The position numbers were made by a program, and so were the translations under genes. A stretch of DNA of 64,000 nucleotides from Eledone cirrhosa (lineage: Eukaryota). Each line of letters starts with the position of its first letter. The first letter of the stretch is position 1. The notes under the pieces were generated by a model. It did not search any database. It was not told where the DNA came from and saw nothing but the letters and a program-made list of their open reading frames with translations. Location: NCBI GenBank assembly GCA_964016885.1, contig OZ024740.1:266786001-266850000 (forward strand). Reading direction: 5' to 3'. Below, one piece after another: positions 18,616 to 60,685 of the stretch.

Positions 18616-19075
18616 AAAAGAGAAATGTTAAATAAATATATATGCACAAACAGACATATATGTAAATATACATATACAGAATTACCTCCCCCATATTTGG
18701 TTATGCTGTTGGTCACATGCATTGATAAAAATCAAGGTAAGTATGACAATGAAAATATCTATTTCATATGTATCTCAGTTGATATGAACAATGAAATGAA
18801 ATAAAAAGGAGAGATGGAAAAGTTCAAAACTGTTGTGCTTAGATATGAATAATGAAGTTATCATTAGACTGTGAGGTACAAAGATCACTAATCTCAGTAA
18901 AAACAACAACAACCATTCACAGTATTCATATGATGTCAGCAAAAAAGATTATCTTGTGAAAGAGGATACAAATTATACACTTCACAGATGTCATACACAG
19001 CAAAAAGCTAAAATTATTTGTGTGGTGAAGTAGCAATAGGACTTTTAATTAATAAGTCTCCAAGGAAACTACAAA

Positions 19076-19415
19076 ATGAAGTCAGTAAATCTCCTTAAGT
19101 TCTTGATATCTTTAACAACCCTCACCTCTGTTATACAAGCAAATACTGAAAATCCTTTAAATTATTGGAAACTATGGGGAAAATTGGGGAAGAACCAAGA
19201 CTTTCATCAATTTTCTCATCAGAATAAAACTTTGGAAATGTTCAGGGATACAATTACTGGAAATTTAGACAAGAGGAACCAAATTGAGAAAGTGCAGAAT
19301 TTATTAAGGCAAGACTTCTGTAATTCTTCATCCAGTTTTGATATCTCAAAGAAGTGCTGTGAAGACACCAAACTAGTGTTTGAGTCTCTGGCTCATGAAC
19401 TATGGGCTCAACAAA
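19076..19415 (+). CDS. Exon 1 of an NRF-6 (nose resistant to fluoxetine 6) / O-acyltransferase-like protein: signal peptide plus start of the NRF domain
   Basis: ATG in an AAAATG context and a hydrophobic N-terminus MKSVNLLKFLISLTTLTSVIQA. Ends SKKCCEDTKLVFESLAHELWAQQ followed by a phase-1 donor A|GTAAGT at 19416. Confidence 0.8.
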
Positions 19416-20404
19416 GTAAGTTTTCCTCTTGTATATTAATGATCTACTAGCTGTTACTTCTAAGAATACAGACCCCTTTATTCATAAATAACCCTCTTCA
19501 CACATAGGGATTATCTACATCTAACCTAGTCAACTTACACCAGACATGCATTGTTTTCATGAACAGAGGCTACCCAAACACCATTCAGCTGTAAGGTCAA
19601 GAGTTCAATTACAGACACCACATTGTGTTCTTGAGCAAGATATCTTATTTCAGGTTGCTCCAATCTAAATAGCTGGCAAAAATGAGTTTTACCTGTAATT
19701 CAATGATCTGGTCATGTCATTCACTATGTCATATTGAATCACCCTGAAAACTATGTTAATTGTGCACATGTTTGTAGAATGTTCAGCCACTTACATATTC
19801 ATTTCATGAGCAGGCTGTTCCATTGTTTGAACAACTGGAACACTTGTCATTGGGAATGATGGACATAAAAACAATCACATATAAAAACATGCAATAATTT
19901 TAATAAACTTTTATTAAAAGATACCTTATCCCATGGAATGCCAGAATGTCTTTGCATGACCCACTTTAGGAAACATTGTTTTATATGGTAACTCAGTCTT
20001 CTGGATACTTTTTCTTTGCTCACTTATTCCTGAGAGGGTTATGGGGGCAAAGTCCTCAAACACTCCTTCCAGTGGATCCTCCCCAAGCAAGACCAGTCAA
20101 GGTCATGGATGTTATCCAACCATCTTGCTTGAGGTTTACCCCTGGGTCTCCTGCCAGTTGGTTTTGCCTATAAAATCTGTCCAGCGATTCTTTCCTGAGA
20201 CATTCTAACCACATGCCCATAGTATCAGAGCTGTGATACAACCATTAAATCTACTTTAAATCAATCATACCTTACCATTTTAAAAGAAGGAGATAATGGA
20301 TAATGTGGCAACAACAGTATCACAACAATTTTACATTAGATTCCTCAAATATAATTAATTTAAAATTCGAAATGTTGAAATCCAAACACAGAATCACTAC
20401 AATG

Positions 20405-23185: not shown

Positions 23186-23376
23186 TGATTGACGCATATG
23201 GAAAAATCCCCAGTGGAATTCTTTTGGGGGATTTTAAATTCCCAGGATCCTTTGAAGAATGCAAGAAATCGAAAGTAGTGATATCGACCAACCTATCTGG
23301 GAAAATACAAGACTATCACCCTTTTACTCCAAAATACTGCCAAGTGATGATAGTTTCATCAAAGTCTGCTCCTCCG
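23186..23376 (+). CDS. Exon 2 of the NRF-6/OACYL-like gene (NRF domain)
   Basis: Acceptor tttaattcag|TG joins the phase-1 A of exon 1 to give WAQQ-M-IDAYGKIPSGILLGDFKFPGSFEEC...KYC. This matches the NRF-domain pattern WA..M.DA.GK.PSG.L.G....G...EC. Phase-0 donor CCG|GTATGA at 23377. Confidence 0.85.
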
Positions 23377-25458
23377 GTATGAGGGAATATAATATTCAAC
23401 ATATATTTACTGCTTTCTAACATGCCTCATATAATCTCATCATAATTTATGGGAGTGAGATATGGATGATGAACTGAGAGAGAGAAAAATAGAGAGAGAG
23501 AGAGAGGAGGGAGAGTACTACAGATGGGAATAGAGCCATTTATGAATGTTGAGAAGAGGAATGGAATAAGGGACATGGGTGGTGAATGTAGAGCAGCAGA
23601 GATGTGAGAATGGTTTGGTAGATGAATCAGATATCGCTCAGAGAGAGGGAGACAAATGATGACTTGCAGAGGATGATGAGATGGAACAGAGCCAGTGATG
23701 AATGATATGAAAAGAAATGGAATGACATGAGTTGAGGGAAGATGAAAGTGACTGTGTGAGAGGAATGGTGGAAATGAATGTGGAAGAGGAAAGCTAAGAA
23801 AGACCTGGCAAATTATAATGGTGAAGGAAATGAAATCCATGGAGATGGTGGGAGAATACAGCCGATAGAGAAAAATGGAAAAACTTGTCATGAGGCCTGC
23901 AAAGCTAACTCTTGCTTTAGAATGTAAAATGGCCTTTAAATGTGTGTTGTTGTTTGGTAAACCACTTATTCATACTCATAGATAAGTCTCATTTTCTTTT
24001 ACTAAAAATTTGGTTGTAAAAAGATGCATTCGATTTATCTACTAACTCTTTCTTGAAATATCAAATAATTGTTTCTACTTTTGGCACAAGGCCAGCAAAT
24101 ACCCAGTGCATTACTGGTACTTTATTGAAATATCAAATAATGGTTTCTGATTTAGGCACAAGGTCAACAATTTTAGGGGAGGGGAAAGTCTATTAATTTG
24201 ACCCCAGTGCATTACTGGTACTTTATTTTATCGACCTCATATGGATAAAAGGCAAAGCTAAACTCAGCAGGATTTGAAATCAGAATGTAAAGGAGCATAA
24301 CTTTATGCTGCGAACCATAGGGTCCAACACTCTCCCAATGCTGTCAATCCACCGCTCTCTTGAAACATCAAATAATGAAACCAAAATATTATAAACACAA
24401 AAGAGTGGTTGCTTCTGTTGATTTAAAAAAAAATCAAAATTAGTCATTTAGTTTACATATTGAGACCCCAACTCATTCTATTTATTTTATAAGATATGGG
24501 ATTTTTATCATGTATAATGTTTTTAATGTATAAATAAAATTAATTGTTGCAGAAATGGTATCACTTTAAATAAAATTACACTGGAGATAGATTAGCAAAA
24601 TTTAATAAGCAGTGGGGTGGAGTTTGGAAAAAATCTGAAAAATTGATAAGTGTGTGTGTGGGAGGGCGATTATTTGAGACCCGAGAGTACTAATTCAACC
24701 ACCTTTATGGTAGGTATAGTATACTACTGATAAACTAAGTCTATAAACTTGATTTAATTCTTAGTTTTAGCTGATTCACTTGGTTAAGATATAAATGCTA
24801 TAACTCACATACTTATCTTAGTTTTTAGTTGGCTGTACCCATGACCTTTTTTAGGACCTCAAAGACTGGAATGTTACTTTATTTTACCAAATCTGAAAGT
24901 GACTAGAGAAGAGGAAAGATTAAAAATAAGTATAAAGTAGATTTAACCTCAGCAAGATTTGAACTCATAGCACAGAATGTCAGAACAAATACCACATGGC
25001 ATTTTGTCCGACACTCTGCTAATTTTTAATTTATTAGGACTGACATCACTAAACAGGCAAGATCAATCAACAAACAAGTGTATGGATTAAATATTTGTTT
25101 CTACTTTAGGCACAAGGCCAGCAATAACCCAGTTCATTACTGGTACTTTATTTTATCGACCCCGTAAGGATGAAAGGCAAAGTCAACCTCGGCGGGATTT
25201 GAACTCAGGTGTATGGATTAAATATTGTTATATTAACAGTACCAGCTATATGTGCAAAATGTAGCACTTTCTTCTTCTTAGTGCCATACCTCATGATGGA
25301 GTCATAGGTGTGCCATAGTGACATACAGTGTTTCTTGGGCATTTTAAGCCTGGTGGACCCCATCCCTCTCCAAGCCTGGCTACAGCAGATTTCTTCCATA
25401 GAATAATAAAGTGAGTGAGAGAATGGAAGTGAGAAAGAGATATAGAGGAAGAATCATC

Positions 25459-27039: not shown

Positions 27040-29297
27040 GGAAGAAGGGAAGAACGGGGGGAGCAGGGTACATTACATAGAGACCAAGAGGGAAGCTAGG
27101 TGACAAGTATACTTAGCTAGGAGGGAAGCAGAGGATAGAAAATTCAAGCATGTTTTGCAACGTGAGGACCAGAAACAGGAGGTGTTCAAGATTGCGAGGC
27201 AGTGTGTCAGAGAGAATTGGGATGTCATTGGAGAGAAGTGTATCCGGAATGATAAAGGTGAGCTTGCCCTCACAAGTGCTGAGAAGAAAGATGCATGGAA
27301 GAGTCATTATGATAGATTACTAAATGAGGAGAATGCATGGGAAGAAGAGACCCTACCCCAAGTAGACCCTATAGAGGGGCCAGCAGTACAAGTCAGCAGC
27401 AGCGTAGTAAGTAAGGCAATCATAGATATGAAGATGGGGAAGGCAACCGGTCCATTGGGTATAGCTGCCAAGATGCTAAAGGCATCTGGGTCTGTAGGTT
27501 ACACTATAACCACACGTATTGTTAACCAGGTAATACTAGAAGGTGTCATACCAAAAGATTGGTGCAGTAGCATCATTGTCAACTGCTACAAAGGTAAAGG
27601 TGAAGCACTCAATAGAGGAAACTACAGAGGTATAAAGCTGATGGACCAGGTCATGAAAGTAACAGAAAGAGTTATAGCACAGTTGATTAGGGACCGGGTG
27701 AAACTAGATGAAATGTACCAGGAAGAGGCACCACGGATGCCCTCTTCCTTGTGAGGCAGTTACAGGAAAAGTACCTAGCTAAAAGTAAGCCACTCTACCC
27801 GGCATTCGTCGATCTCGAGAAAGCCTTTGACAGAGTTCCACGTGCTGTAATCTGGTGGGCTCTTAGAAAACTAGGAGTAGATGAATGGCTTGTGAAAGCT
27901 GTACAAGCCATGTATAGGGGAGCAGTCAGCAAAGTTAGGATTAGCAATGAGTATAGCGAGGAATTTAGCGTACAGGTTGGGGTCCACCAGGGCTCTGTTC
28001 TTAGCCCTCTCCTGTTCATCATAGTCCTGCAGGCAATAACGGAGAAGTTTAAGACCGGATGCCCATGGGAACTCCTGTATGCAGATGACCTCGCACTTAT
28101 AGCTGAATCTATGGTAGAACTAGAGAAGAAATTCCAAACTTGGAAGCAGGGACTAGAAAGAAAGGGTCTCAAAGTCAACATGACAAAGATTAAGGTACTT
28201 GTAAGTAGACGAGAAAACAGAACCCACATCCCCTCAGGGAAATGGCCTTGCTTAGTATGTAGGAAAGGTGTAGGTAGGAACTCCATTCTCTGCCCCAAAT
28301 GCAAACAATGGGTATACAAGAGATGTAGCAGGATCTCAGGAAGCTTAATTAAGAATGTAGGCTTCACATGCAGCAGCTGTACTGGGACAGCAAGCAGCAA
28401 ACAGCCACAGGAAACAAGTACCACCAATCTCTGGGAGGGCTCTGTAGAGACAGTAGACAGCTTCTGCTACCTAGGTGACCGAATTAGCAGCGGATGTGGG
28501 TGTTCAGAAAGTACAATAACTAGGTAAGAACAGGATGGAAGAAGTTCAGGGAACTCCTACCACTGCTAGCTGCAAAAGGCTTCTCCCTCAAAATGAAAGG
28601 CAGACTGTATGATATGCGTGTATCCGAACAGCAATGTTACATGGTAGTGAGACCTGGGCGCTGAAGGTGGAAGACTTACGTAGATTAGAGAGAAACGAAG
28701 CCTGCATGCTCCAATGGATGTGTAATAGTAATATACGCGAACGAAAAGCATAAATGAATTGTGAGAGAGACTGAGCATAAGAGGAATCAAATGCTGTGTG
28801 CAGGAGAGGCGGTTGCGTTGGTATGGACATGTGATGCGTATGAAGGATGACAGCTGTATAAAAAGGTGCAGAGCACTAGAAGTCGATGGAAACCGCGGAC
28901 GAAGATGACTTGGGATGAGGTGAAAAAAGCCGACCTTATCCAATTACACCTCTCAAAGGCGATGACATACGACCGTGACCTCTGGCGTCACGCAGTAATA
29001 CAGAGTACCCGACCTCCCATGGGTACAAGCTGAAGCATATAGACAATATGCCCCCACACCCTCCCACTGCAAGGTGGTCGTGGAGGTGTAGGCGCCACGG
29101 AAAAAGCACCCAGCACTCACTGTAAATGAGGTTGGTGTTAGGCAGGGCATCCAGCTGTAGGAATCAAGCCAAATCAGTTCCTGTATGAGCAAGGCATGGT
29201 CAGCCGACCAGACACTGCCCACAACAGGACAACCCGTCTAACCCATGCTAGCGTGGAAGAACGGACGTAAAACGGTGATGATGATGATGATGATGAC
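27040..29297 (+). mobile_element. RTE-clade LINE, 5'-truncated, with complete 3' tail
   Basis: ORFs 27155-27754 and 27751-28527 (FVDLEKAFDRV, GVHQGSVLSPLLF, LLYADDL, FCYLGD), then LRWYGHVMRM and a 3' UTR ending in (gat)n at about 29276-29297. Confidence 0.93.
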
Positions 29298-30368: not shown

Positions 30369-33300
30369 TAAAAAAAACCCCGTATAACCGACTCCTAGAG
30401 GAGTTTGAGGACAGGATCATTACCATGGTCCGGACCATTAGATTCAGGAAACCACCGCGAAACCCTGACAGAAGTGCATTCCCGTCTGGTCTCACATCTA
30501 CTGTAAAAATGATCAGGAATAGCCCTGGCATCATCGTACCAGCCGATAAAACAGGAAACTTATATTATTTGGAGTACAAAACTTACAACAAATGGATTAC
30601 AAATGAAATAGCTAAAATATACAAAACATCAACTCGGGAAAACCTAGCACACATAAACAAACAAGCGAAAACAATAATGACAGAACTGAGCATTGATGAC
30701 AGGGCTCAACCCTACAACCCTAGGACACCGAGACTATCTATTAAAGACCATAAACCGGACTTTCAGTCAAAACTACCGGCCAGACTCATAGCCCCTCTAA
30801 ATCGGACCTAGGTAGACTAAGAAAATCAATCATTGACCGGGTTATACCTGAACTTAGAAATAGAACTAAACTCAGCCTATGGTCATGTACAAAGGAGGTA
30901 ATCGACTGGTTTTGAGGCATTGAAACTAAGTCGAATGTTCGACTAGTCCAATTGGACATTACGAACTACTACGCCACTATATCCCAAATCATCCTTAACA
31001 AGGCACTGATCTCAGCCATGAACAGATCAAGCCTCACTAGAAACGAAGTGGACATCATACTAGTAGCTAGGAAAACTTTACTAGAATTTGACGGTAAATT
31101 GTGGGAGCGACAGAATAGACCAGATAGCTTCGACATTACTATGGGATCGACTGACTCCGCATAACCGACGCCTAGAGGATCATTACCATGGTCCGGACCA
31201 TTACAGATATAGTAGGCCTATATCTCTTAAATATATTAAAAGACGAGATCCCCTCCTTGGGCGGTGGCTTATACCGTGCCCTACTCATGACCCGTGGACT
31301 CAATAATAGCCAATTAGATAGACTACACAAACGACTTAGGTATATCTTTAAGACCCAAGGATTAGCGGTAGAAATTGAACCTAACAGTACGACAGTAAAC
31401 TTTTTAGATGTCACTCTGGAATTAGACACAGGTCTCTACCGTCCATACTACAAACCTAATGAAAATCTTAAATACGTCAACAGACACTCCAACCACCCTA
31501 GGAGCATAATTAACTCAATAGTTAAAAGCGTTTCCTAGAGTGTCCACCCTGTCAGAAAATAGAACTATCTTCAACCAGCACGCGGAATACTACAACGACC
31601 CAGCTAGAACCGCAACGCCGCTAAACATAATCGGACCCTTAGAAACGAACATTGACGAGGTCGCCACACCTAGAAAAAATAATAACCTAAGACCCTCTTT
31701 AGCCGGCAGCGCAGGCAGAGTTACACACAACTGTCAAGGAGACAAAGCTATACTCTCCAACCCAATAAGGACTCTGGCTATTGCACACGTTTACGTAGTA
31801 ATAGAGACAAAAGACATAACGCCAATAGATTACTAGGAACCCCTATGACATATACGCATGACCAAAAGGCACCCACACTAACACCTAACCACAAAAACCT
31901 CACTAAACACGATAAAGCCCGAAGTTGACCTGTCACACGTTGCCACCAATATACTGGGAACTTTCTTCAGGGCTCTTGAACAATCTTTTCCACACACATA
32001 AATACCACAAGCTCTTCAATAGACACACTGTAAAATTCTCTTTCTCCACAGCACCAAATCTAGGCCACACAATATCACACACTAATAGGACAAAAATACG
32101 CAAACAATTGGTTGCTCCACAACAAACAACTACCACAACCCAGAACAAAACCACATACACAACGCAACACAACAACCAACATGCCAGCTCCACACAACAT
32201 GCCACCAACCGACAACGTGCCACCACACCGGTAACACCCAATTGCAACTGCAAAAAACGGGCAGAATGTCCACTAAACGAGGAGTGCCTCGTTAAAAACA
32301 TTGTTTACCGGTGTGATGTCAAAGCTGGCAATAAAGAGTACTCATATATAGGTGCGACCTCCACTACGTTTAAGGAGCGCTGGTATAACCATAGAAGCTC
32401 CTTTAAACACAGGCTGAAACGATCCCAAACTAGACTGGCCGATTTGATCTGGGACCTCAAGGACAGGAACATCGAATTCCAGATCATATGGTCAGTCAAA
32501 AGACACGTCGCCCAACTCCCCAGTGACAGAAACCACTGCAGGTTATGCCTGGCCGAGGCGGCTGAGATAATTAAATTAAAATCTGCCATAAACCCTAGGT
32601 CGGACATAATTATCAATTGCAGACACACCAGGTTGAACACATTTTCTGCACAAACATTCGACTGAGGGCTGTACACTAACCATGACCCAACATAATATTA
32701 ACCACCTTTGCCCTGTCTCACCGTCCCTCATCTCAGTGAATTTGTTTTATAACATGTAACCCTTTGTAAGTCCAAATTTTGTATATATCATGCCGCATCC
32801 ATCACTCCCACCAAAAGACACATCGCCATACACCCCTCATGTTAGTACCATTGTACCATACTTCAACAATCATTAACATCATTAACATCGCCAACACACA
32901 CCTTCCCTCCCTAAACAACGCTAGTGTGTGTGTCTGTGTGTAAGTATATTCATATGTACAACGCCATCTCCATTGGCTCTCCCCCTCCCTCTATCTATGT
33001 ACTACACCATCCCTACTGACACCCCCTCCCTCTATATATACACACACACACACGCATATATGTGTATATATATATGTGTATGTATGTGTGTGTATGTGTG
33101 TGTATGTGCATATATGTCAGTGTGTATACACGCATGTGTATGTATACAATGTTTTTGTCAGACTAAGTGTGTCTATGTATGTATCTCCTCATTGTATTTG
33201 ACACCACCAACACATCCACCACACCACCATAAACACCATTACCACAAACAACAACACCACACCCACATCACACACAATAATCAGCCACAAATATAGCCAA

Positions 33301-36499: not shown

Positions 36500-36679
36500 A
36501 TAAATTAATAAAAACAATGAATAAAAACAAAGAAACAATTCCTTATATTAAAGAATTCATCATTTTACGATCGTTTCTAGGATATATATGTGTGTGTTGG
36601 TTTGTATATCATATAGATCTATGTAAACATTTTACAAACTATCAGAGGGAATATACATACCTACACATATATATGCTGT
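36500..36679 (-). mobile_element. Solo 3'-terminal fragment of the same PLE family (hammerhead truncated before CUGAAGA)
   Basis: Aligns with 44133-44311 and is flanked by (TA)n. Retains GAAACGATCGTA but lacks the 5' core. Confidence 0.75.
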
Positions 36680-36837
36680 TATATATATATATATATGTAA
36701 GTAAGTTTTGAAACAGTGAGCAGGTTTGAAATTAGGAAATAGAATAGCTTTCACCGTACTTTTCAACTAAAGAAATTTTAGTCTGATAATGGGGTTTAGA
36801 ACCGTCAGGTAAATGGGAAAAGATGAGTATTGACGTA

Positions 36838-36899
36838 CATGGGAGTCGAACCCACATCTTTGGTTATCCAGATCACTGCGCTACCATTACACCAACACA
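36838..36899 (-). other. tRNA-derived segment (SINE head or tRNA pseudogene)
   Basis: Minus strand tggtgtaatggtagc (A box) ... gggttcgactccc (B box) at tRNA-like spacing. Confidence 0.5.
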
Positions 36900-36944
36900 T
36901 CACCCACACACACATATATATATATATATATATAATATAATATA

Positions 36945-43031: not shown

Positions 43032-43122
43032 TATAATATATATATATATATTTATATATTATATCATATTATATTATATTATATTGTATATATAATATAT
43101 AATAGTATATATATATATATAT

Positions 43123-43337
43123 ATATTTAATGTATAATAAACAACACAGTATAATTACCTCATTACCTGAGGTTTCCCGAACAGGACGAACACAAGAGAC
43201 GTCCGCATTCGTTTGTCAGATAAGGCAATATCTGCCTTATCTGATGAACGAATGCAGACGTCTCTTGTGTTCGTCCTGTTCGGGAAACCTCGGGTAATGA
43301 GGTAATTATACTGTGTTGTTTATTATACATTAAATAT
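43123..43337. repeat. Near-perfect 215 bp palindrome (about 105 bp arms, 5 nt spacer)
   Basis: 43123-43227 is the reverse complement of 43233-43337 apart from a few transitions. Confidence 0.95.
43233..43304 (+). ncRNA. Type I hammerhead ribozyme motif (right arm of palindrome)
   Basis: UGCCUUAU-CUGAUGA-aCGAAUG...UGUUCGg-GAAAC-CUCGG-GUA-AUGAGGUA; stems I, II and III all pair. Confidence 0.7.
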
Positions 43338-43401
43338 TTAGCTCTGTTACTTACATAGAGCACTCTTCATTCCTTTTACTTTTTCCACGGAAACTTCAAC
43401 A

Positions 43402-44105: not shown

Positions 44106-44132
<27 letters not shown>

Positions 44133-44136
<4 letters not shown>

Positions 44137-44976
44137 TAATAAAATAATGAATAAACAAAGAAACAGTTCCTTATATTAAAAAATTCATCATTTTACGATC
44201 GTTTCTAGGATATATATGTGTTAGAGTTGGTATGCATATTCTATAGATCTATGTACAATATTTATACAAACTATTAGAGGGAATATACATACCTACACAT
44301 ATATATGCTGTCTTCAGAAATAATGATATTTGTTTATTGAAAAAAACAAAGATTCAATATAATAGGTCTGTTTGGGAACAGGTTTTGAATTGACCAATAG
44401 AGAGATAGTGAGGGTCAGGATAGTAATATAGTAGTAGAAGAACCTTAAATTATGGGTAGAGGAAGGTAGATTTCAGTTTTGGATGGAAAAGAATATTATG
44501 AATGAAGGATTATTTTAGGGAAGAAATAGGTCTTATGCTGACCTCAGAAATAATTTTATTTGTTCATTGAATAAAACCAACAAAGATCTAATATATTCTG
44601 TCTGTATGGTAAGAGGTTTAGAATTAACCATTAGAAAGATAATAATTGGCCAAATGGTAAAATAGTAGTAATTGAAGCTTATTTTAGGGGTGAAACTGGG
44701 TCAAGTGGTCAGTAAAAGGTATACAAGCAGTTGCTGTTATAAAATAGTAATGCCAATACAAATATCTAAGGTGACTAAAGTTTTACGATAAGAATGTTAG
44801 TGAAAAAAATACATCTATGAAAAGAATATAAATTAATTTAATTGATGGGTATATTTATATTGATAAAATTATACTAATACATATAGGTATTTTAAATAAG
44901 AGTTAGATGCAGTTGAAAAGTGCTGTTAAAGATGAGGGGAAATTAAAAGAATATAAAAATAATATATATATATATA

Positions 44977-45028
<52 letters not shown>

Positions 45029-45057
45029 TATACACATGCACATACACATATACACAC

Positions 45058-45154
<97 letters not shown>

Positions 45155-45163
45155 CATGCACAT

Positions 45164-45196
<33 letters not shown>

Positions 45197-45683
45197 CACA
45201 CATACACACTTACATATACATATAATTATTGGAGGGGGGGATTAAATTTATTGGTGAGAAATAATAAAAAATATATATAGTTTTCAAGGAACATAGAGTC
45301 ATAACCTGAAGTTAAAGCATTATATATGTTTACTTAATGGTATCAGTTTTAGGAAATGATAGTTGTAAGAAGGAAAGCAAAATTATGTAGTTCATCAGTA
45401 GTGGAGTATTAATTATAGGTTAACTAAATTAAAAATAGTTTATATATTAATTTCTAAAGTGTATATTAATTAGGTTTATAATATTTAAAGTAGAATTATG
45501 TAGTTCATCAGTAGTAGAATATTAATTATAGGTTAACTAAATTAAAAATAGTTTATATATTAATTTCTAAAGTGTATATTAATTAGGTTTATAATATTTA
45601 AAGGTTTTTCTCAGTTTATGAGTACACGATATTATTAATTCCTGTCCCTTATTTAATAGGATATCCTTAGATTTCATTATTTC
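44133..45683 (-). mobile_element. 3' fragment of a related PLE (end of GIY-YIG coding region, 3' region with microsatellite, terminal hammerhead)
   Basis: 45585-45683 is a diverged copy of 49252-49356 (EIMKS.DILLNK.QELIISC.HKL). The terminal segment 44133-44340 aligns with 45905-46125. Flanked by (TA)n. Confidence 0.75.
44185..44326 (-). ncRNA. Type I hammerhead ribozyme motif with long stem II
   Basis: Minus strand: UCAUUAUUU-CUGAAGA-[cagcAUAUAUAUGUGU...ACACAUAUAUAUccua]-GAAAC-GAUC-GUA-AAAUGAUGA. It has a 9-bp stem I, an intact core and the palindromic stem III ACGAUCGU. Confidence 0.75.
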
Positions 45684-45692
45684 AGTCTAGAC

Positions 45693-45772
<80 letters not shown>

Positions 45773-45957
45773 GATAAATCTACCAAGAGTTTACGGTAGT
45801 GTCCAATCCGTATGAAGAACTCAATGTATTCCGGATATCATGGAAAGAAGAGATGTAATGAAAATCCACTTTCGGTGAAAGATAAACGGTATACAGAGTC
45901 AAGATAAAATATTAAACAAATAATGAACAAACAATTCCTTATATTAAACAAAAAAAG

Positions 45958-46112
45958 TTCACTATTTAACGATCGTTTCTAGGGTATATATGTGTTATAA
46001 TTGGTATGCATATTTAACAGATCTATGTACAAAATTATACAAAATTATACAAATTATCAAGATTAAATATACATACCTAACTCATATATACGCCGTCTTC
46101 AGAAATAATGAA
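45958..46112 (-). ncRNA. Type I hammerhead ribozyme motif with long stem II (GUU site)
   Basis: Minus strand: UUCAUUAUUU-CUGAAGA-[cggcGUAUAUAUG...CAUAUAUACccua]-GAAAC-GAUC-GUU-AAAUAGUGAA. Confidence 0.7.
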
Positions 46113-46879
46113 GTATATTTATTGATAATAACAACAATTCAAAATATCAGTTCAAAATTGACCAATGAAAACACAAAGGGTTAAAAGCAGTTTGGTGTGT
46201 GTATATACATGTAAAACCTTACACATATTTTACAATAATGTGTGTATAATTTGTATGTGCATACTAAAAAGATGGATGCAAACACAAAATTTCAAGGTTA
46301 ATATCTCTGTAAGCTTAATGCGCTGATAAGATACGCAATGATACTTATGGAGTCAAGCATATAAATATATTTTTTTCATACTCACACATATCAGTATAAT
46401 CACACATACATGTGCATATATGCATAAATATACACATAACCACGAACATACAAACACACACACTCCCCCACTCACATTTATATATGTGGATATAAAATCA
46501 TAAGCAAATAGAAATTAAGTCACTCACATAAAAACACTGGTACACACATTTCAAGATCAAGATACAGAAATTAGGTGGGAGGGGGGGGGAGGGGTCAGTA
46601 TTAGATTGTCAGACCAGACAGCCTAATATAAATGTATCTATAAATTAAGAAAAATAAAAAAATAAAAACAATAAAATATAATAAATATAATATAATGTAC
46701 ATACACATACAGATATACATACACATACATACATGTACGCGCACATAGAGATATCTACACATACATACATACACACATACCTATACTGTCATACACATAC
46801 ATACATTTACACGAACATACACATACACATATAAAAAGATATAAATACACACACACTCACGCGCAACACATACACACAT

Positions 46880-46920
<41 letters not shown>

Positions 46921-46941
46921 TATACACACACACATAGACTC

Positions 46942-46973
<32 letters not shown>

Positions 46974-47282
46974 ATACAAACATATATATCCCCACACTCA
47001 TACCACCATAAATACACATACAAACACCCACATGTATATATATATATATATATATACATATATATCCACACACACACACGTACATATATATATATATACA
47101 TACACACACATACACATACATACATATATATACACACACATAAAAAACAGACATGCACATATATATATATATATATATATATATTTTTCATTACTCTTAT
47201 ATATACACACAGTATATATACATACACAACCTCACTTATACACATATACACATAAGTTATATTACAATAATAATAAAGAATA

Positions 47283-47319
<37 letters not shown>

Positions 47320-47474
47320 TATATATATATACACATACATACATACACATACATACAAACACCTAAATATATACATACATAAATACACACATACGAATAA
47401 AGACATATATTCACACATAGACGCCTATATACACATATATATATATATACATATATATATATATCTATATATAT

Positions 47475-47517
<43 letters not shown>

Positions 47518-49251
47518 CACACACACACACACACACAGACACACATACACACTCACATATATATATATATATATGTGTATGTGAGTGTGCGCAAATACAT
47601 ATATATATACACACACACATACAAACACACACAAACACATACATATGCATACGTGCACACACACACACATATATCACATAGATACGAAGATAAACATATA
47701 AATAGAGAGACATACAAATATATACAGAACCCATATACACATACATACAAACACGCATATACATATACATACATATATACACATATATATATTCCTATAT
47801 ACAAGCATACACATACATACACATATATACATATACATACACATATACATACCACACATTCACATACACATACATATATAATACATATATATACATATAT
47901 ATACATACATATGTATGTACAATCATATATACACACTCAATCTTACATTCATATTTACATGCTCATATATGTATTTTTATATTTAGAAATAAATACCAAA
48001 ACCTATATAGACACCCACCTACACATATATTCATACATATACGCTTACAAAAACAGATGATAATAGTATGGGGGAAAGGGGGGGTTTGGAGAAGGGGATC
48101 AAAGTAAATATATGTTTCAAGAAACATATAATATTTTCCGTATCTTAATTCAATGTATGTTCTTACATATTTTCAGTGCTAGGAAATACGAAATCTATGC
48201 ATCCCAAAATAAAAAAGTATACCATTAATCATATGTTAACTAAACCAAAGATAGTCAACATATTGATTTCCAAGGTGTAAATTAGTTAGGTTTATAATAT
48301 TTGAAGCAGAATTATGAAGTCAAACAGTAGTAGATTATTAATTACATTATAACTAAATTAAAGTTAATAACGTTATGGTATCAATATTAGGAGATGAATT
48401 TAGTAATAGGGAAAAGAAACCCAAATAAAAATAAAATAAAGTATTACATCGGTAGTAGCATATAAATTATATGTTAACTAAATTAAAAATTATATATTTA
48501 TTTCAATAGTATACGTTAATTAGTATATGTTAATTAGGTATACAATACATAAAGCAGATATTGTATTTCATCAATAGCATAATATAATTATATGCAAATA
48601 AAAATCAAAATTAATACGCATACACATACATATACATACACATACACATATATATACATATACACACATATATATATATATATACATATATATACACATA
48701 TATACATATATAGTCACATAAATATACATACAGATACACATACAATACACACATATACATATACATATAGATATACATATCTTTTTCAAAAAATTGCACA
48801 GAATATATTAACTAGGTATATATCCAAAACACATCCCATTCTATGATTACATGACATTCTGCAATTCGTCTGTACAAGGATACTAATTTTAAGCAAATTA
48901 AAATTAAAGTTTTAGGTTGATTAAAACTAAAACCAAATAATAAATATATTTCCAAAATGTATATTAATTAGGTCTATAATACTAAAAATTCTTTCTCCGT
49001 CATAGGATACATGATATTATTTTGTTATATTTTATCTGTAAAAGAATTATAATAAAAAAAATTATAATAAAAGGTTAAAATAAATTAAAATTAATCTATA
49101 AATTAAATTACTGAGTATATATTAGTAATATTTAAAGGTTTTTCAAAATTTATGATTACATAATATTTTCTCATCTGTAATAAAATATTAATTAAATTAA
49201 ATTTATAGGTTAACTAACATTTAAATTAAATTAAATTCTAGAATAATGTTA

Positions 49252-50820
49252 TTAATTAGGTTTATAATATTTAAATGTTTTTTTTAGTTTATGATTACAC
49301 GATATAATTAATTCCTGTCTTTTATTTAATAAGATATCCCTAGACTTCATTATTTCAAATAGTTCTTGGGAACATAATCTACATTCCTTTCTATTATTTT
49401 GATAAGGGGTGGCTCTTTTGAGCACACTCCAGGTCAAATCATATTTTATATTTTTATTTTTATAACTATTGATTTTTTCTGCTAGAGATGTTGTATTAGC
49501 CAGTGCGGCATTTTTAAAGCTATGTTTGTGGGTATTATACCTTGTCTTAAAATTGTTAGAGGTAGCTCCTATATATGAGCAAATAGAATCTTTAGTTTTA
49601 ACATTACATTTATAGACTATGTTGTTAACAAGACAATTCCCTTTTAATGGGCAGTTTGTTTTGTTTCTACAGTTACATCCTTTCGTTAATTCTGTATTTG
49701 AGGAGATATTATTGTTAATTTGATGTACTGGTGGTATACTTATGGTTTTCTTACATTTATATGCATTATATGCACTTATATTTTGTTTTATGTTATTTGT
49801 TGTAGAGTATGAGAATTTAACTGTAGACCTATTTAAGATTTGATGGTATTTGTGGTTTGGCGGGAAGTTTTTCTCAAGGATATAAAAAAATTTTTTAGCA
49901 ATATTATCCTTAACTTGTAAATTAAAAGGAGCATTATACCAAGTAACTCGTCTATTACGGTTTCTATGTTGTTTATTATTTTTATTATTTTTATATGTTG
50001 TATCATGATTTTTACTAGGAGGATTAATGTTAATGATCTCACCACAACTATTTTTAGTTATATTTGTAGATTTAGGTGTTTTATCTTTTTTATTAGGAGT
50101 TTTATTATTAATATTTATTATAGTCGTATGATGAGTAGTTTTTTGAGGGTTACTATACTTTATATTAGAAGATTTAGTATTTTGGGGTATACTGTGGGTG
50201 GCATTTAGGTGTGTACTTTTCATTTGGTGTTTGTTGGTAATATTATGCTGTATGCTTTCAGTATTTTTAGTAGAAGGTATATACTCTAATCTATTTTTGT
50301 GGCCACTTCTATCTAGAGCTTCATTATAAAAGGTCGCATTTTTATCAAATACATCTTGGTTAGAAGAAAGGTTAGAAATTCTAAGTGATATATTATATGC
50401 AAGGTTTTTAAGGATAGATTTAGGGTGATTAGATTGTGAGTGTATGTAATGTAAGTTTTGGTTAGGTTTATGGTAAGGTTGGTATATACCCGTAGCTAAA
50501 TCTAAAGTTATATCTAGGAAATTTACTACTTTACTTGTTTTTTCAAAAGTAATATTAAGATTATAATAGTCTTTAAGGAAAGTTCTAATATGCTTTTTGT
50601 TTTTTTCGATTTCTGAAAGGCTAAGGTTGTTAGAAAGAAGAAGACAGTCATCACGATATAAACCACCTTTGAGGTGGGGAAAAGAGGCATTTATGTTGAA
50701 AAGGAGAAAGAGGCCCACAAGATCAGTAATTTGGGCGGAATCGCTTGAACCCATAGTAATATCAAAAAGATTACTGTAAGTGTTTCTGGTAATATCAAAA
50801 AGATTACTGTAAGTGTTTCT
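49252..50820 (-). CDS. PLE ORF, C-terminal part (RT motif B onward, thumb, N/K/T-rich linker, CxC...CP zinc linker, GIY-YIG), uninterrupted
   Basis: FDITMGSSDSAQITDLVG, GLYRDD, VNFLDITLDL, SNHP, CNCRNKTNCPLKGNCL, IVYKC, YIGAT, RYNTH, CRLC..E, CNH. Confidence 0.9.
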   Translation of the reverse strand, partial: RNTYSNLFDITRNTYSNLFDITMGSSDSAQITDLVGLFLLFNINASFPHLKGGLYRDDCLLLSNNLSLSEIEKNKKHIRTFLKDYYNLNITFEKTSKVVNFLDITLDLATGIYQPYHKPNQNLHYIHSQSNHPKSILKNLAYNISLRISNLSSNQDVFDKNATFYNEALDRSGHKNRLEYIPSTKNTESIQHNITNKHQMKSTHLNATHSIPQNTKSSNIKYSNPQKTTHHTTIININNKTPNKKDKTPKSTNITKNSCGEIININPPSKNHDTTYKNNKNNKQHRNRNRRVTWYNAPFNLQVKDNIAKKFFYILEKNFPPNHKYHQILNRSTVKFSYSTTNNIKQNISAYNAYKCKKTISIPPVHQINNNISSNTELTKGCNCRNKTNCPLKGNCLVNNIVYKCNVKTKDSICSYIGATSNNFKTRYNTHKHSFKNAALANTTSLAEKINSYKNKNIKYDLTWSVLKRATPYQNNRKECRLCSQELFEIMKSRDILLNKRQELIISCNHKLKKTFKYYKPN

Positions 50821-50821
50821 G

Positions 50822-53800
50822 AACCTTTGGCATTGAAAAGTCCACACTTCAACCTGAAAGATCACAAATCTAATTTTAACTCTAATCCTTCTATTAGACT
50901 TATATGTCCCTCCAAATCAGATATTGGAATAATTAGCAAAAAAATTTTAGATAGAGTCATCCCACAAATAAGAAAATACGTTATTTTACCACTCTGGGAA
51001 AACACCTCCCAGGTAATTAATTGGTTTAAAAATATTAGGTGTAAATCTTCTGCTTCTTTCCTACAATTTGATATAGATAATTACTATTCTTCTATATCAC
51101 CCATACTCCTGAACAAAGCATTAATATTTGCTAAAAATAGATCTAATTTAACTTCGGATGACATTAACATTATTACACATGCTAGACAAACACTTATTGA
51201 ATTTCAGAATGAATACTGGACCAGAAACACTTACAGTAATCTTTTTGATATTACTATGGGTTCAAGCGATTCCGCCCAAATTACTGATCTTGTGGGCCTC
51301 TTTCTCCTTTTCAACATAAATGCCTCTTTTCCCCACCTCAAAGGTGGTTTATATCGTGATGACTGTCTTCTTCTTTCTAACAACCTTAGCCTTTCAGAAA
51401 TCGAAAAAAACAAAAAGCATATTAGAACTTTCCTTAAAGACTATTATAATCTTAATATTACTTTTGAAAAAACAAGTAAAGTAGTAAATTTCCTAGATAT
51501 AACTTTAGATTTAGCTACGGGTATATACCAACCTTACCATAAACCTAACCAAAACTTACATTACATACACTCACAATCTAATCACCCTAAATCTATCCTT
51601 AAAAACCTTGCATATAATATATCACTTAGAATTTCTAACCTTTCTTCTAACCAAGATGTATTTGATAAAAATGCGACCTTTTATAATGAAGCTCTAGATA
51701 GAAGTGGCCACAAAAATAGATTAGAGTATATACCTTCTACTAAAAATACTGAAAGCATACAGCATAATATTACCAACAAACACCAAATGAAAAGTACACA
51801 CCTAAATGCCACCCACAGTATACCCCAAAATACTAAATCTTCTAATATAAAGTATAGTAACCCTCAAAAAACTACTCATCATACGACTATAATAAATATT
51901 AATAATAAAACTCCTAATAAAAAAGATAAAACACCTAAATCTACAAATATAACTAAAAATAGTTGTGGTGAGATCATTAACATTAATCCTCCTAGTAAAA
52001 ATCATGATACAACATATAAAAATAATAAAAATAATAAACAACATAGAAACCGTAATAGACGAGTTACTTGATATAATGCTCCTTTTAATTTACAAGTTAA
52101 GGATAATATTGCTAAAAAATTTTTTTATATCCTTGAGAAAAACTTCCCGCCAAACCACAAATACCATCAAATCTTAAATAGGTCTACAGTTAAATTCTCA
52201 TACTCTACAACAAATAACATAAAACAAAATATAAGTGCATATAATGCATATAAATGTAAGAAAACCATAAGTATACCACCAGTACATCAAATTAACAATA
52301 ATATCTCCTCAAATACAGAATTAACGAAAGGATGTAACTGTAGAAACAAAACAAACTGCCCATTAAAAGGGAATTGTCTTGTTAACAACATAGTCTATAA
52401 ATGTAATGTTAAAACTAAAGATTCTATTTGCTCATATATAGGAGCTACCTCTAACAATTTTAAGACAAGGTATAATACCCACAAACATAGCTTTAAAAAT
52501 GCCGCACTGGCTAATACAACATCTCTAGCAGAAAAAATCAATAGTTATAAAAATAAAAATATAAAATATGATTTGACCTGGAGTGTGCTCAAAAGAGCCA
52601 CCCCTTATCAAAATAATAGAAAGGAATGTAGATTATGTTCCCAAGAACTATTTGAAATAATGAAGTCTAGGGATATCTTATTAAATAAAAGACAGGAATT
52701 AATTATATCGTGTAATCATAAACTAAAAAAAAACATTTAAATATTATAAACCTAATTAATAACATTATTCTAGAATTTAATTTAATTTAAATGTTAGTTA
52801 ACCTATAAATTTAATTTAATTAATATTTTATTACAGATGAGAAAATATTATGTAATCATAAATTTTGAAAAACCTTTAAATATTACTAATATATACTCAG
52901 TAATTTAATTTATAGATTAATTTTAATTTATTTTAACCTTTTATTATAATTTTTTTTATTATAATTCTTTTACAGATAAAATATAACAAAATAATATCAT
53001 GTATCCTATGACGGAGAAAGAATTTTTAGTATTATAGACCTAATTAATATACATTTTGGAAATATATTTATTATTTGGTTTTAGTTTTAATCAACCTAAA
53101 ACTTTAATTTTAATTTGCTTAAAATTAGTATCCTTGTACAGACGAATTGCAGAATGTCATGTAATCATAGAATGGGATGTGTTTTGGATATATACCTAGT
53201 TAATATATTCTGTGCAATTTTTTGAAAAAGATATGTATATCTATATGTATATGTATATGTGTGTATTGTATGTGTATCTGTATGTATATTTATGTGACTA
53301 TATATGTATATATGTGTATATATATGTATATATATATATATATGTGTGTATATGTATATATATGTGTATGTGTATGTATATGTATGTGTATGCGTATTAA
53401 TTTTGATTTTTATTTGCATATAATTATATTATGCTATTGATGAAATACAATATCTGCTTTATGTATTGTATACCTAATTAACATATACTAATTAACGTAT
53501 ACTATTGAAATAAATATATAATTTTTAATTTAGTTAACATATAATTTATATGCTACTACCGATGTAATACTTTATTTTATTTTTATTTGGGTTTCTTTTC
53601 CCTATTACTAAATTCATCTCCTAATATTGATACCATAACGTTATTAACTTTAATTTAGTTATAATGTAATTAATAATCTACTACTGTTTGACTTCATAAT
53701 TCTGCTTCAAATATTATAAACCTAACTAATTTACACCTTGGAAATCAATATGTTGACTATCTTTGGTTTAGTTAACATATGATTAATGGTATACTTTTTT

Positions 53801-54493
53801 ATTTTGGGATGCATAGATTTCGTATTTCCTAGCACTGAAAATATGTAAGAACATACATTGAATTAAGATACGGAAAATATTATATGTTTCTTGAAACATA
53901 TATTTACTTTGATCCCCTTCTCCAAACCCCCCCTTTCCCCCATACTATTATCATCTGTTTTTGTAAGCGTATATGTATGAATATATGTGTAGGTGGGTGT
54001 CTATATAGGTTTTGGTATTTATTTCTAAATATAAAAATACATATATGAGCATGTAAATATGAATGTAAGATTGAGTGTGTATATATGATTGTACATACAT
54101 ATGTATGTATATATATGTATATATATGTATTATATATGTATGTGTATGTGAATGTGTGGTATGTATATGTGTATGTATATGTATATATGTGTATGTATGT
54201 GTATGCTTGTATATAGGAATATATATATGTGTATATATGTATGTATATGTATATGCGTGTTTGTATGTATGTGTATATGGGTTCTGTATATATTTGTATG
54301 TCTCTCTATTTATATGTTTATCTTCGTATCTATGTGATATATGTGTGTGTGTGTGCACGTATGCATATGTATGTGTTTGTGTGTGTTTGTATGTGTGTGT
54401 GTATATATATATGTATTTGCGCACACTCACATACACATATATATATATATATATGTGAGTGTGTATGTGTGTCTGTGTGTGTGTGTGTGTGTG

Positions 54494-54536
<43 letters not shown>

Positions 54537-54703
54537 ATATATATAGATATATATATATATGTATATATATATATATGTGTATATAGGCGTCTATGTGTGA
54601 ATATATGTCTTTATTCGTATGTGTGTATTTATGTATGTATATATTTAGGTGTTTGTATGTATGTGTATGTATGTATGTGTATATATATATATATATGTAT
54701 ATA

Positions 54704-54740
<37 letters not shown>

Positions 54741-55049
54741 TATTCTTTATTATTATTGTAATATAACTTATGTGTATATGTGTATAAGTGAGGTTGTGTA
54801 TGTATATATACTGTGTGTATATATAAGAGTAATGAAAAATATATATATATATATATATATATATGTGCATGTCTGTTTTTTATGTGTGTGTATATATATG
54901 TATGTATGTGTATGTGTGTGTATGTATATATATATATGTGTACGTGTGTGTGTGTGGATATATATGTATATATATATATATATATATACATGTGGGTGTT
55001 TGTATGTGTATTTATGGTGGTATGAGTGTGGGGATATATATGTTTGTAT

Positions 55050-55081
<32 letters not shown>

Positions 55082-55102
55082 GAGTCTATGTGTGTGTGTA
55101 TA

Positions 55103-55143
<41 letters not shown>

Positions 55144-55209
55144 ATGTGTGTATGTGTTGCGCGTGAGTGTGTGTGTATTTATATCTTTTTATATGTGTAT
55201 GTGTATGTT
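50822..55209 (+). mobile_element. Second, inverted copy of the same PLE; has about 400 bp more 5' RT sequence, a nonsense codon at 52069-52071 and a +1 frameshift near 52730; runs into the assembly gap
   Basis: ORF 50827-52071 (LKDHKSNF, RLICPSKSDIG, QFDIDNYYSSI, GLYRDD). 51220-55209 is the reverse complement of 46814-50790. Confidence 0.9.
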
Positions 55210-55409
55210 NNNNNNNNNNNNNNNNNNNNNNNNNNNNNNNNNNNNNNNNNNNNNNNNNNNNNNNNNNNNNNNNNNNNNNNNNNNNNNNNNNNNNNNNNNN
55301 NNNNNNNNNNNNNNNNNNNNNNNNNNNNNNNNNNNNNNNNNNNNNNNNNNNNNNNNNNNNNNNNNNNNNNNNNNNNNNNNNNNNNNNNNNNNNNNNNNNN
55401 NNNNNNNNN
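55210..55409. other. Assembly gap (200 N)
   Basis: Run of N; true length unknown. Confidence 1.
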
Positions 55410-56912: not shown

Positions 56913-57129
56913 ATTGCTGTAATAATAATAGTAATAATAATGATAATGATGCACATAAACACCATTGACATCATCATCATCATCATTATCATCATCATCA
57001 TCATCACATGTATGATAATGTAGACTCTATTGATAAGAATAACACAACAGTATCAGTGACAAAAAAGTTGGTCCCTCACATTTTCAGTTAAAACGTTATA
57101 TAACCTCCTGTTGACAATTGTAACTACAT

Positions 57130-57860
57130 TAGTGACAACAGTAGCAACAACAACAGCAACAACAACACATCATTAACATCAACAACGGCAACAACAGTAA
57201 CAACAACACTAGCAACAACAACGACAGTAGCAACAACATTAACATTAACAACAACAGTGACAACAACAGTAACAACAACAACAGTAACAACAACAACAGT
57301 AATAACAACAACAGTAACTATAACACTAACAACAACAACAATAACAACAACACTAGCAACAACAACAACAACAGTAGCAACAACAGTAACACAAACAACA
57401 ACAGTGACAACAACAGTAGCAACAACACTAGCAACAACAACAGTGACAACAACAGTAACACTAACAACAACAGTGACAACAACAGTAGCAACAACAACAG
57501 TAGCAACAACAACAGTAGCAACAGCAGTACCATTAACATCACCAACAACAGTAACTATAACACTAACAACAACAACACTAACAACAACAGTAGCAACAGT
57601 AGCAACAACAGTATTAACAGCAGTATTGACAACAACAACAACAACAACAGCAACAACAGCAGCACCAACAGAACCATTAACATCACCAACAACAGTAACT
57701 ATAACACTAACAACAACAACACTAGCAACAACAACAACAGTAGCAACAACAGTATTAACAGCAGTATTGACAACAACAACAACAACAACAACAACAGCAC
57801 CAACAGAACCATTAACATCACCAACAACAGTAGCTATAACACTAACAACAACAACAGTTA
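57130..57860. repeat. Compound (ACA/ACAGTA) microsatellite with higher-order repeat
   Basis: AAC-rich triplets with a repeated ccattaacatcaccaacaacagtaactataacacta block. Confidence 0.85.
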
Positions 57861-59080: not shown

Positions 59081-59536
59081 GTGGCAAATGGTGGAAGGAG
59101 GAGGAGATAGAAGCAGAGAAATTGACAACTGAGTAGGAGGTGACGTGAGAAGCGCTTTATGCAAGGGGCACAGCTGTAGTAATAGTGTTACTTATACAAG
59201 AGGTACTTACACAAGACAGGAGATTTACCAACGTAAGAAAAAAAGGTACACACCCATATATATATACATATGCACAAACATACACACATATCATATATAT
59301 TTATATACATACATTCACACTCACACTAGACACACATACATACACACACACACATATATATATATGTATATACGTGTGTTGTAGTGCACCTGAGCACTGT
59401 ACACAAACAAGCACCAGTCACAACAGAATGGATAACATAATCTACTGCATTCATTCATAAAACATCTGCCACATTCAGCACTACCGTCGATATCATCGTT
59501 AATATCAATACTACCATCATCATACTTTCCAGTTTG

Positions 59537-60565
59537 CATCACTACCGGCACCACCTCCATCACCACCATCACATCCAACACCACCACCACCACCACCACC
59601 ATCAAAGACTGCTCAACATCACTACCGGCACCACCTCCATCACCACCATCACATCCAACACCACCACCACCACCACCACCATCAAAGACTGCTCAACATC
59701 ACTACCGGCACCATCTCCATCACCACCATCACATCCAACACCACCACCACCACCACCACCACCATCAAAGACTGCTCAACATCACTACCGGCACCATCTC
59801 CATCACCACCATCACATCCAACACCACCACCACTACCATCATCAACGACTGCTTAACATCACTACCGGCACCACCTCCATCACCACCATCACATCCAACA
59901 CCACCACCACCACCACCACCATCAACGACCGCTCAACATCACTACCGGCACCACCTCCACCATCACAGCCATCACATCCAACACCACCACCACCATCAAA
60001 GACTGCTCAACATCACTACCGGCACCACCACCATCACATCCAACACCAGCACCACCACCATCAACAACTGCTTAACATCACTACCGGCACCACCTCCATC
60101 ACCACCATCACATCCAACACCACCACCACTACCATCATCAACGACCGCTCAACATCACTACCGGCACCACCTCCATCAACACAATCACACCCAACACCAC
60201 CACCACCACCATCAACGACTGCTCAACATCACTACCGGCACCACCACCACCACCATCACAGCCAACACCACCACCATCAACGACTGCTCAACATCATTGT
60301 CAATACCAACACCATCACAACGAACACCACCACCACCACCACCATCAACGACTGCTCAACATCCCTACCAACAACACCATCACCATCAACGGCTGCTCAA
60401 TATCACTACCGCCACCACCACCATCACCATCACAGCCAACACCACCACCATCAACGACTGCTCAACATCACTCCCGCCACCACCACCACCACCACCATCA
60501 CCATCACAGCCAACACCACCACCATCAACGACTGCCCAACATCACTGCCACACCACCACCATCAT
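59537..60565. repeat. CAC-rich minisatellite, unit about 55-85 bp
   Basis: Repeated catcactaccggcaccacctccatcaccaccatcacatccaac(acc)n atcaa(a/c)gactgctcaa. Confidence 0.9.
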
Positions 60566-60685
60566 TATCTGCTGGCAACAGAACCGGCATTACTTTCCGT
60601 GCTCACGCCACCAGCGCCTCATGCTGCCGACACCAACGGCACCAACACAAGCAAGTGACAAAGATTTGTAATAACGACCCCTCCA

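Follow-up and report, generated by a model that had tools for sequence, protein, structure and literature searches.

Two hammerhead motifs in the window (the whole 64,000-nt stretch of the Eledone cirrhosa genome analysed here) appear to sit at the ends of Hydra-clade PLEs, a placement drawn from ORF motifs. We propose, with a probability of roughly 55%, a hammerhead whose helix II encloses an intron and whose stem I opens a capped RNA that is copied unspliced and uncut. That the motifs, A and B, are type I hammerhead ribozymes of the PLE dimer type is predicted with high confidence from their cores and modelled folds. A capped start at stem I is probable, judging from insertion ends, and sequence signals tip the balance slightly towards a small spliceosomal intron within helix II. 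The intron signals inside helix II and the start-site signature at stem I are apparently new: the accessible parts of the literature that we consulted describe no 100-nt helix II and no intron inside one.

Table 1. Window positions of the hammerheads, the insertions that carry them and the features predicted in their RNA.
Feature	Position	Strand	Basis or remark
Hammerhead A (type I, subfamily A)	45958..46112	-	core scan and fold
Stem I of A, 10 bp	46112-46103 (5' strand), 45967-45958 (3' strand)	-	
5' core of A	46102-46096	-	
Helix II of A, 116 nt	45980..46095	-	alignment, covariation
3' core of A with palindromic loop III and GUU	45979-45968	-	
Predicted cut site of A	45968/45967	-	
Inferred transcription start, +1 A, 7 nt before core	46109	-	insertion ends; upstream pLTR homologue, tandem element
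Predicted 54-nt intron in helix II of A	46023..46076	-	donor/branch/acceptor signals
Predicted downstream hairpin of A, with second copy of stem I 5' strand	45918..45967	-	fold prediction
Long one-sided tail of A	45770..45903	-	short end (~+64) to long end (~+198), then TA run
Subfamily A insertion body: 3' UTR and 5'-truncated RT/GIY-YIG ORF (50880-49255)	46113..50880	-	ORFs, comparison
Inverted partner arm of subfamily A insertion	50794..55209	+	99.6% identity over 3,990 nt
(TA)n target run separating A and B insertions	45696..45769	.	repeat scan
5'-truncated subfamily B insertion: last ORF codons (45683-45582), 3' UTR, hammerhead B, short end	44131..45684	-	
Hammerhead B (type I, subfamily B)	44185..44326	-	core scan and fold
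Stem I of B, 9 bp	44326-44318 (5' strand)	-	
5' core of B	44317-44311	-	
Helix II of B, 105 nt	44310-44206	-	
Predicted cut site of B, GUA ending at 44194	44194/44193	-	
Predicted 44-nt intron in helix II of B	44249..44292	-	donor/branch/acceptor signals
Predicted downstream competing hairpin of B	44141..44193	-	fold prediction
Third copy, subfamily B, 5'-truncated, without 5' core	36557..36679	-	begins inside TA run
Intron signals in third copy, 42 nt	36660-36619	-	donor/branch/acceptor signals

Both copies carry the core CUGANGA / GAAA / NUH. An earlier sequence-only reading of this DNA had given their minus-strand positions, core strings and 9–10-bp stem I, all of which agree with ours; its cut 3' of GUA in B falls where we predict it, and the third copy, which it called truncated, lacks the 5' core. 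Folding of the two copies is more stable than expected for their composition (z = -5.34 for A and -4.26 for B; none of 200 shuffles was as good for either). A 15-nt 3'-core pattern has 14,874 exact matches in the 3.0-Gb genome against 2 for the reversed control, and a 17-nt 5'-core pattern has 10,682. As the searches demanded the core, its conservation across these copies does not count as independent evidence. An Rfam search of the window returned no hammerhead family among the best 150 of 293 matches. Hammerhead searches that limit the length of loop II would overlook about 15,000 motifs in this genome.

Simple rules divided the 139 distinct helix II sequences that we collected into six subfamilies (A, B, C1, C2, D and E), with a few misfiled; sampling purposely enriched rare variants, and subfamily shares are not genome shares. 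Helix II spans 83–126 nt across this set (script window 80–126 nt), so the very long stem II claimed earlier holds. It folds strongly in young families but weakly in old ones, with median z of -8.2 in A, -4.9 in B, -4.3 in E, -2.7 in D, -2.0 in C1 and -1.6 in C2 (up to 10 copies per subfamily, 40 shuffles). The proposal that (UA)n-like sequence builds stem II is right for A, B and E, where UA repeats form the base of the helix, and fails for C1, C2 and D.

Covariation, the check suggested by that reading, was assessed in 30 hand-picked copies from the six subfamilies on a core-anchored structure. Double changes occupy 82 cells compared with 36.9 in shuffled alignments (0 of 500 reach this value) and 9–19 in slid controls, counts that relatedness among the copies inflates. 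They affect 13 of the 19 pairs of stems I and II, and the paired fraction is 82% versus 31–45% in slid controls. Swaps between lineages occur at stem I pair 4 (A-U/G-C) and at helix II pairs 2, 3, 5, 6 and 7; stem III is invariant across the 30 copies and hence without covariation. Position 5 of helix II is G-C in A and A-U in B, which bears out the compensatory switch noticed in the two window copies, and 8 of 32 A copies have a G.U intermediate.

Next to the core, the helix is variable. Helix II of A opens with C.A at position 1 (46095/45980), followed by two pairs, C.C at position 4 (46092/45983) and G-C at position 5. The C.A had been singled out as a non-canonical closing position; it is present in both window copies and in most members of A (29/32) and B (39/52). 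It is nevertheless no atypical mark of the family, since position 1 is U-A in E (13/18), A-U in C1 (13/19) and A.C in C2 (9/11), and the accessible part of Craig File S2 already has C.A next to the core in PLE-X1_cBra (PMC8557442). The closing mismatch of helix II is thus already known in print, and U10.1-U11.1 was reported by Perreault 2011 (PMC3088659, seen in part). Position 1 is unpaired in 19 of 30 copies and position 2 is R-Y in 29 of 30; the R10.1-Y11.1 rule fits position 2 only when an additional base per side is admitted, as Craig File S2 does. The C.C mismatch at position 4 recurs in 121 of the 139 sequences and is the commonest state in every subfamily; by its position it is a candidate for a loop I–loop II tertiary contact. 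All 11 sampled C2 copies (L111, L122, L126 and others) have a U4C core change, a base that the sorting rule partly used.

Stem III consists of 2 bp and a self-complementary loop, whose duplex is computed at -12.0 to -13.8 kcal/mol. The dimer architecture that the sequence-only reading took from known PLE hammerheads is favoured by the computed energies: a double hammerhead reaches -84.0 kcal/mol versus -69.2 for two active monomers in A, and -73.6 versus -58.8 in B. In this calculation, made without the downstream strand, it also beats two ground states by 3–9 kcal/mol. In the predicted ground state the two core strands pair with one another and stem I is sequestered, and stem III forms in the modelled monomer with a probability of at most 0.035. 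Adding 60 nt of tail brings the modelled probability of stem I down to 0, its 3' strand being captured by a second copy of the 5' strand further downstream. The resulting downstream hairpin is clear in young subfamilies (13/14 copies in A, 25/40 in B) and weak elsewhere (6/19 in C1, 3/11 in C2, 3/15 in E, 0/7 in D).

Genomic ends give a weak hint of cleavage in vivo. Both arms start at the predicted cut, with 0–1 nt between them, in 9 of 35 junctions near that site, although a local palindrome could explain 2 of the 9 and loop III fold-backs give a similar peak. Among 33 B copies with a base other than A before the cut, 11 of the 30 examined begin at the cut, a count that has no matched control. 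Copies ending at the cut site as a rule were rejected, since 3' ends lie elsewhere.

The predicted intron takes the form of an ordered donor–branch–acceptor pattern inside helix II. It is present in all 32 A copies, 40 of 52 B copies, 12/18 in E, 5/11 in C2, 3/19 in C1 and 2/7 in D, compared with 1–6% in shuffles; these fractions are partly circular, as the pattern was composed after the copies had been viewed. The antisense strand gives 0–1 matches per subfamily except in D, which has 4. Each of the 7 D copies carries a donor and an acceptor along with a weaker branch. In the C lineage the donor is another one, located at helix II position 6, and one C1 subgroup lacks a donor. The differing donor sequences of two lineages both match the splice-signal consensus. 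Of 16 aligned copies, 15 have the donor hexamer unchanged, although the strand that it pairs with varies at two positions. Predicted introns are 42–57 nt long, following a predicted exon 1 of 32–33 nt; 42–44 nt is very short for an animal intron. In the modelled fold, donor and branch pair with exon-2 bases (the intron of A included), and in folded examples of A, B, D and E the proximal helix is predicted to be kept after in silico splicing. We found no spliced copy among the loci collected, nor did any of four contig sets of unknown kind show a joint that skips the intron; these sets gave neither ends nor strand, and one of them (X1) covers host introns like DNA.

Subfamily A has a 10-nt duplication (46028-46065) inside the predicted intron, which takes it from about 44 to 54 nt. 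Helix II of A also contains upstream AUGs at 46085, 46074 and 46011 (minus strand), one of them within the predicted intron; predicted cleavage of A would strip all three together with the cap.

The probable start at stem I is read from where insertions end. Genome-wide, 1,037 head-to-head junctions leave 0–30 nt between two cores and break within the stem I 5' strand. An equal window starting 28 nt upstream holds 4 (reversed control 1), though 5,595 copies reach there. The longer junction arm is exactly 7 nt of stem I in 30 of 42 cases and at most 7 nt in 38 of 42. The genomic base at the next position (-8) is C, whereas G follows the arm in 10 of 43 7-nt arms versus 1 of 41 other arms (p = 0.007), in 9 of 18 junctions whose arms are separated by a spacer and in 14/47 versus 2/35 of a wider junction set. 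The extra G recurs in 5 of 9 C-lineage copies. A hand count of non-C bases at -8 in the first 100 of 3,105 cores weighs the other way, with A 54, T 24 and G 22, the A and T counts being inflated by overlaps and by a SINE-bearing sublineage; many junctions use a 1–2-nt overlap. The start so placed is a pyrimidine–purine step, and an untemplated 5' G has been read as a possible copy of the cap for L1 (PMC9341517, seen in part). In effect, about 1,000 junctions would serve as a fossil 5'-RACE that predicts the start with single-base precision. The idea of a downstream promoter element at constant spacing was rejected, as the alignment showed it to be inconsistent between lineages. In a B sublineage (L020, L032, L041, L049, L099) a SINE-like piece lies exactly at the stem I -7 boundary and reduces stem I to 7 bp.

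At the other side, copies end at +59 to +73 or at about +200 after the cut site, which fits an uncut template, as for PAc in vitro (PMC11167929), and 38 of 39 readable head-to-head pairs combine one short end with one long end. The junction arms within a locus are near identical (median 1 difference at 43 loci, compared with 12 between loci in 597 pairs), so both arms come from one source. We therefore rejected the idea of two RNA templates joined through loop III, which predicts mixed arms, and the one candidate for a mixed A/B junction, L132, proved to be a point change only.

The claim that the motifs are PLE-terminal agrees with what surrounds them. The subfamily A insertion ending in hammerhead A is young. 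Its inverted partner arm contains an ORF with one stop (50794-52731) and enters an assembly gap (55210-55409). The subfamily B insertion is 92% identical to locus L033. That the two copies form a tandem pair within one element did not hold up: they are the ends of separate insertions of different subfamilies. The long tail of A stops directly after a small palindromic hairpin (45770-45783, minus strand), as do the other long arms examined. A Pfam search with six ORF pieces from the window gave no real match. Elsewhere in the genome, an uninterrupted frame (P0001) encodes, by motif reading, RT followed by a C-terminal GIY-YIG in a single ORF, with RWR (not RWK), DKT, a CxCX5C linker, CxxC and CxH around conserved E and N, and no CCHH motif. 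In the accessible part of PMC8557442, RWK-type and DKT motifs, the CxCX5C linker and CxxC/CxH without CCHH are Hydra-clade marks. At the one tandem locus measured, a hammerhead is followed by 354 nt, an ATG, 813 aa, a 3,885-nt 3' UTR and a second hammerhead, which lies 6,680 nt (the tandem unit) beyond the first. Element copies are found inserted into (TA)n. At L180, L182, L060 and L079, diverged C-lineage hammerheads have related ORF pieces as same-strand neighbours. The motif is thus ORF-linked, and 16 of 17 neighbour pairs within 600 nt (first 100 matches) are head-to-head; on these grounds we rejected a non-LTR retrozyme.

The window holds further features. At 43120-43340, a second, unrelated hammerhead family forms a head-to-head palindrome in a TA run. 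The core of its right arm is intact, with a helix II of about 36 nt that opens with A.G, and its left arm has a mutated core; here too the junction lies at the stem I 5' edge, with 8 shared nt, a 5-nt spacer and one short plus one long end. An older, broken Hydra-type PLE at 30380-32644 (plus strand) is 37–53% identical to P0001 and has the DKT motif, and a simple scan found no hammerhead behind it. Just upstream of the truncated third copy, 36831-36901 (minus strand) is tRNA-like (Rfam tRNA, 38.6 bits) and probably a SINE head. Broken LINE fragments at 6170-8098 and 27088-29011, 74% alike and in opposite orientation, are by likeness what we take to be RTE type. Given probable host exons of a secreted protein at 19049-19450 and 22876-23382 (plus strand), a host intron may contain the elements in antisense orientation. 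Long degenerate trinucleotide and 74–80-nt tandem arrays with open frames occupy 57100-57860 and 59436-60671.

Under the reading that we favour, Pol II would start 7 nt before the core in an upstream pLTR. Once helix II is folded, the splice donor and branch site would be paired to exon-2 bases; RNA in this fold would thereby retain the intron, and translation would use spliced RNA. The monomer, its stem III being only 2 bp, would be off, and cleavage would require two RNAs paired through the common palindrome; in young subfamilies the downstream hairpin would capture the stem I 3' strand, making cutting rare. On both target strands RT would then start within the RNA, about +64 and +198 past the cut site, and copy uncut, unspliced RNA up to the cap, and joining of the two products would leave head-to-head stubs. 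A 150-nt RNA predicts both a splice product and a cut site. More tentatively, the first 190 nt may act as one switch nesting start, ribozyme and intron, with helix II blocking splicing and the downstream hairpin blocking cleavage. Folded, capped, unspliced and uncut RNA would then be the copying template, and unfolding or dimerization would yield spliced or decapped RNA for translation. PLE intron retention, sense versus antisense template and the role of the hammerhead are open questions in the accessible parts of PMC3846280 and PMC8557442. If true, the switch would mean that PLEs retain introns through RNA structure, on a sense template, and that a hammerhead can hold an intron within one of its helices.

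These observations could also arise from an ordinary dimer-type PLE hammerhead whose helix II has merely grown, with GT/AG signals falling by chance in an AT-rich hairpin and the AG/AG internal loop kept for structure or protein binding; the start at stem I may hold even so. We consider this possible but rather improbable. It sits well with the lack of a spliced form among the loci and the four contig sets, the shortness of the predicted introns, the missing donor in one C1 subgroup, the position of the acceptor bases in a conserved internal loop and the known variation in helix II length (accessible parts of PMC3088659 and Craig File S2). Chance is, however, hard to reconcile with a splice pattern much commoner than in shuffles and, in five of the six subfamilies, almost absent from the antisense strand, with a donor hexamer that stays fixed while its partner varies, and with two lineages whose different donors both fit the consensus.

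An intron could be retained without any splice-blocking structure if the template were an antisense RNA whose 3' end at stem I self-primes, which would also make palindromes; the antisense-template model was proposed by Arkhipova et al. 2013 (PMC3846280, seen in part). Near-identical arms are what fold-back predicts, and the short overlap at many junctions fits as well, but neither the extra G at -8 nor the two fixed outer ends is explained, and the latter match the two sense-template RT starts of PAc. We regard this as quite unlikely. Just as little weight goes to a fold that no longer cleaves and is kept as a protein-binding, promoter or RT-guiding structure, the -7 boundary being an RT stop. 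The predicted ground state, with its mutually paired core strands and sequestered stem I, the U4C change throughout the sampled C2 copies and the ability of PAc to insert in vitro without hammerhead cleavage (PMC11167929) all lean that way. Against it, the stems flanking the core show covariation between lineages, a viroid tolerates U4C in vivo (in a source seen in part), and the two sets of ends at the predicted cut (9/35 junctions, 11/30 B copies) weakly hint at cutting. The capped, intron-containing hammerhead RNA remains our preferred account.

Compared with known systems, the element resembles Hydra-clade PLEs as described in the accessible part of Craig et al. 2021 (PMC8557442): a type I motif that lies near the 3' end on the sense strand, a helix II with one additional base per side, a palindromic helix III, (TA)n targets, an inverted 5'-truncated partner, a one-sided tail and the ORF motifs. 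Craig File S2 has the extra base per side in most Hydra-clade cores, mostly as U.U. Differences from that account lie in helix II, which is 83–126 nt here compared with a loop 2 of 3–10 nt and a helix II domain of at most about 24 nt in the Hydra listing; the longest domain in the table, about 52 nt, belongs to a non-Hydra element. A fixed C.C mismatch and helix II intron signals occur only here as far as that part of the source goes. The unit is 6.7 kb, whereas Hydra-clade PLEs are generally under 3 kb (a descriptive, not diagnostic, trait), and the tail is about 135 nt rather than 30–40. P0001 resembles Hydra-1_Obim by eye; that is a different family with a short, different hammerhead. An 11-nt 3'-core string had 0 matches in the accessible Craig supplement, where line breaks could hide one.

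With metazoan PLE min-HHRs, as given in the accessible part of Cervera and De la Pena 2014 (PMC4209133), the motif shares dimer-type architecture, there of low activity, the extra base between positions 9 and 10.1 and opposite-strand pairs, which lie 100–700 bp apart in that account. Helix II is 6–8 bp in min-HHRs and in the D. virilis Penelope variant (PMC4209133, PMC2377424, both seen in part), unlike here, and the "long helix II" of PMC13725137 (likewise seen in part) is 6 bp. In the accessible part of Schostak et al. 2008 (PMC2377424), the promoter of D. virilis Penelope is internal and a 75-bp intron lies 46 bp behind the start, a distance close to our predicted exon 1; that intron ends at the helix I 5' end, while ours is predicted inside helix II and the start here appears to coincide with stem I. 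Animal non-LTR retrozymes are likewise type I, PLE pLTR-related and present as many short copies (bioRxiv 10.64898/2026.07.22.740005, PMC7229834), but in the accessible part of the former they are tandem non-coding units, in contrast to the head-to-head neighbours and ORF link seen here. Another parallel is PAc (Poseidon, Anolis), for which both target strands are extended in vitro, two internal RT starts set the tail, and uncleaved RNA is the dominant template, with a hammerhead inactive without protein (PMC11167929). The PAc ORF starts inside its hammerhead, whereas in Eledone cirrhosa the ATG lies 354 nt after the cut site and the hammerhead has a helix II of about 100 nt.
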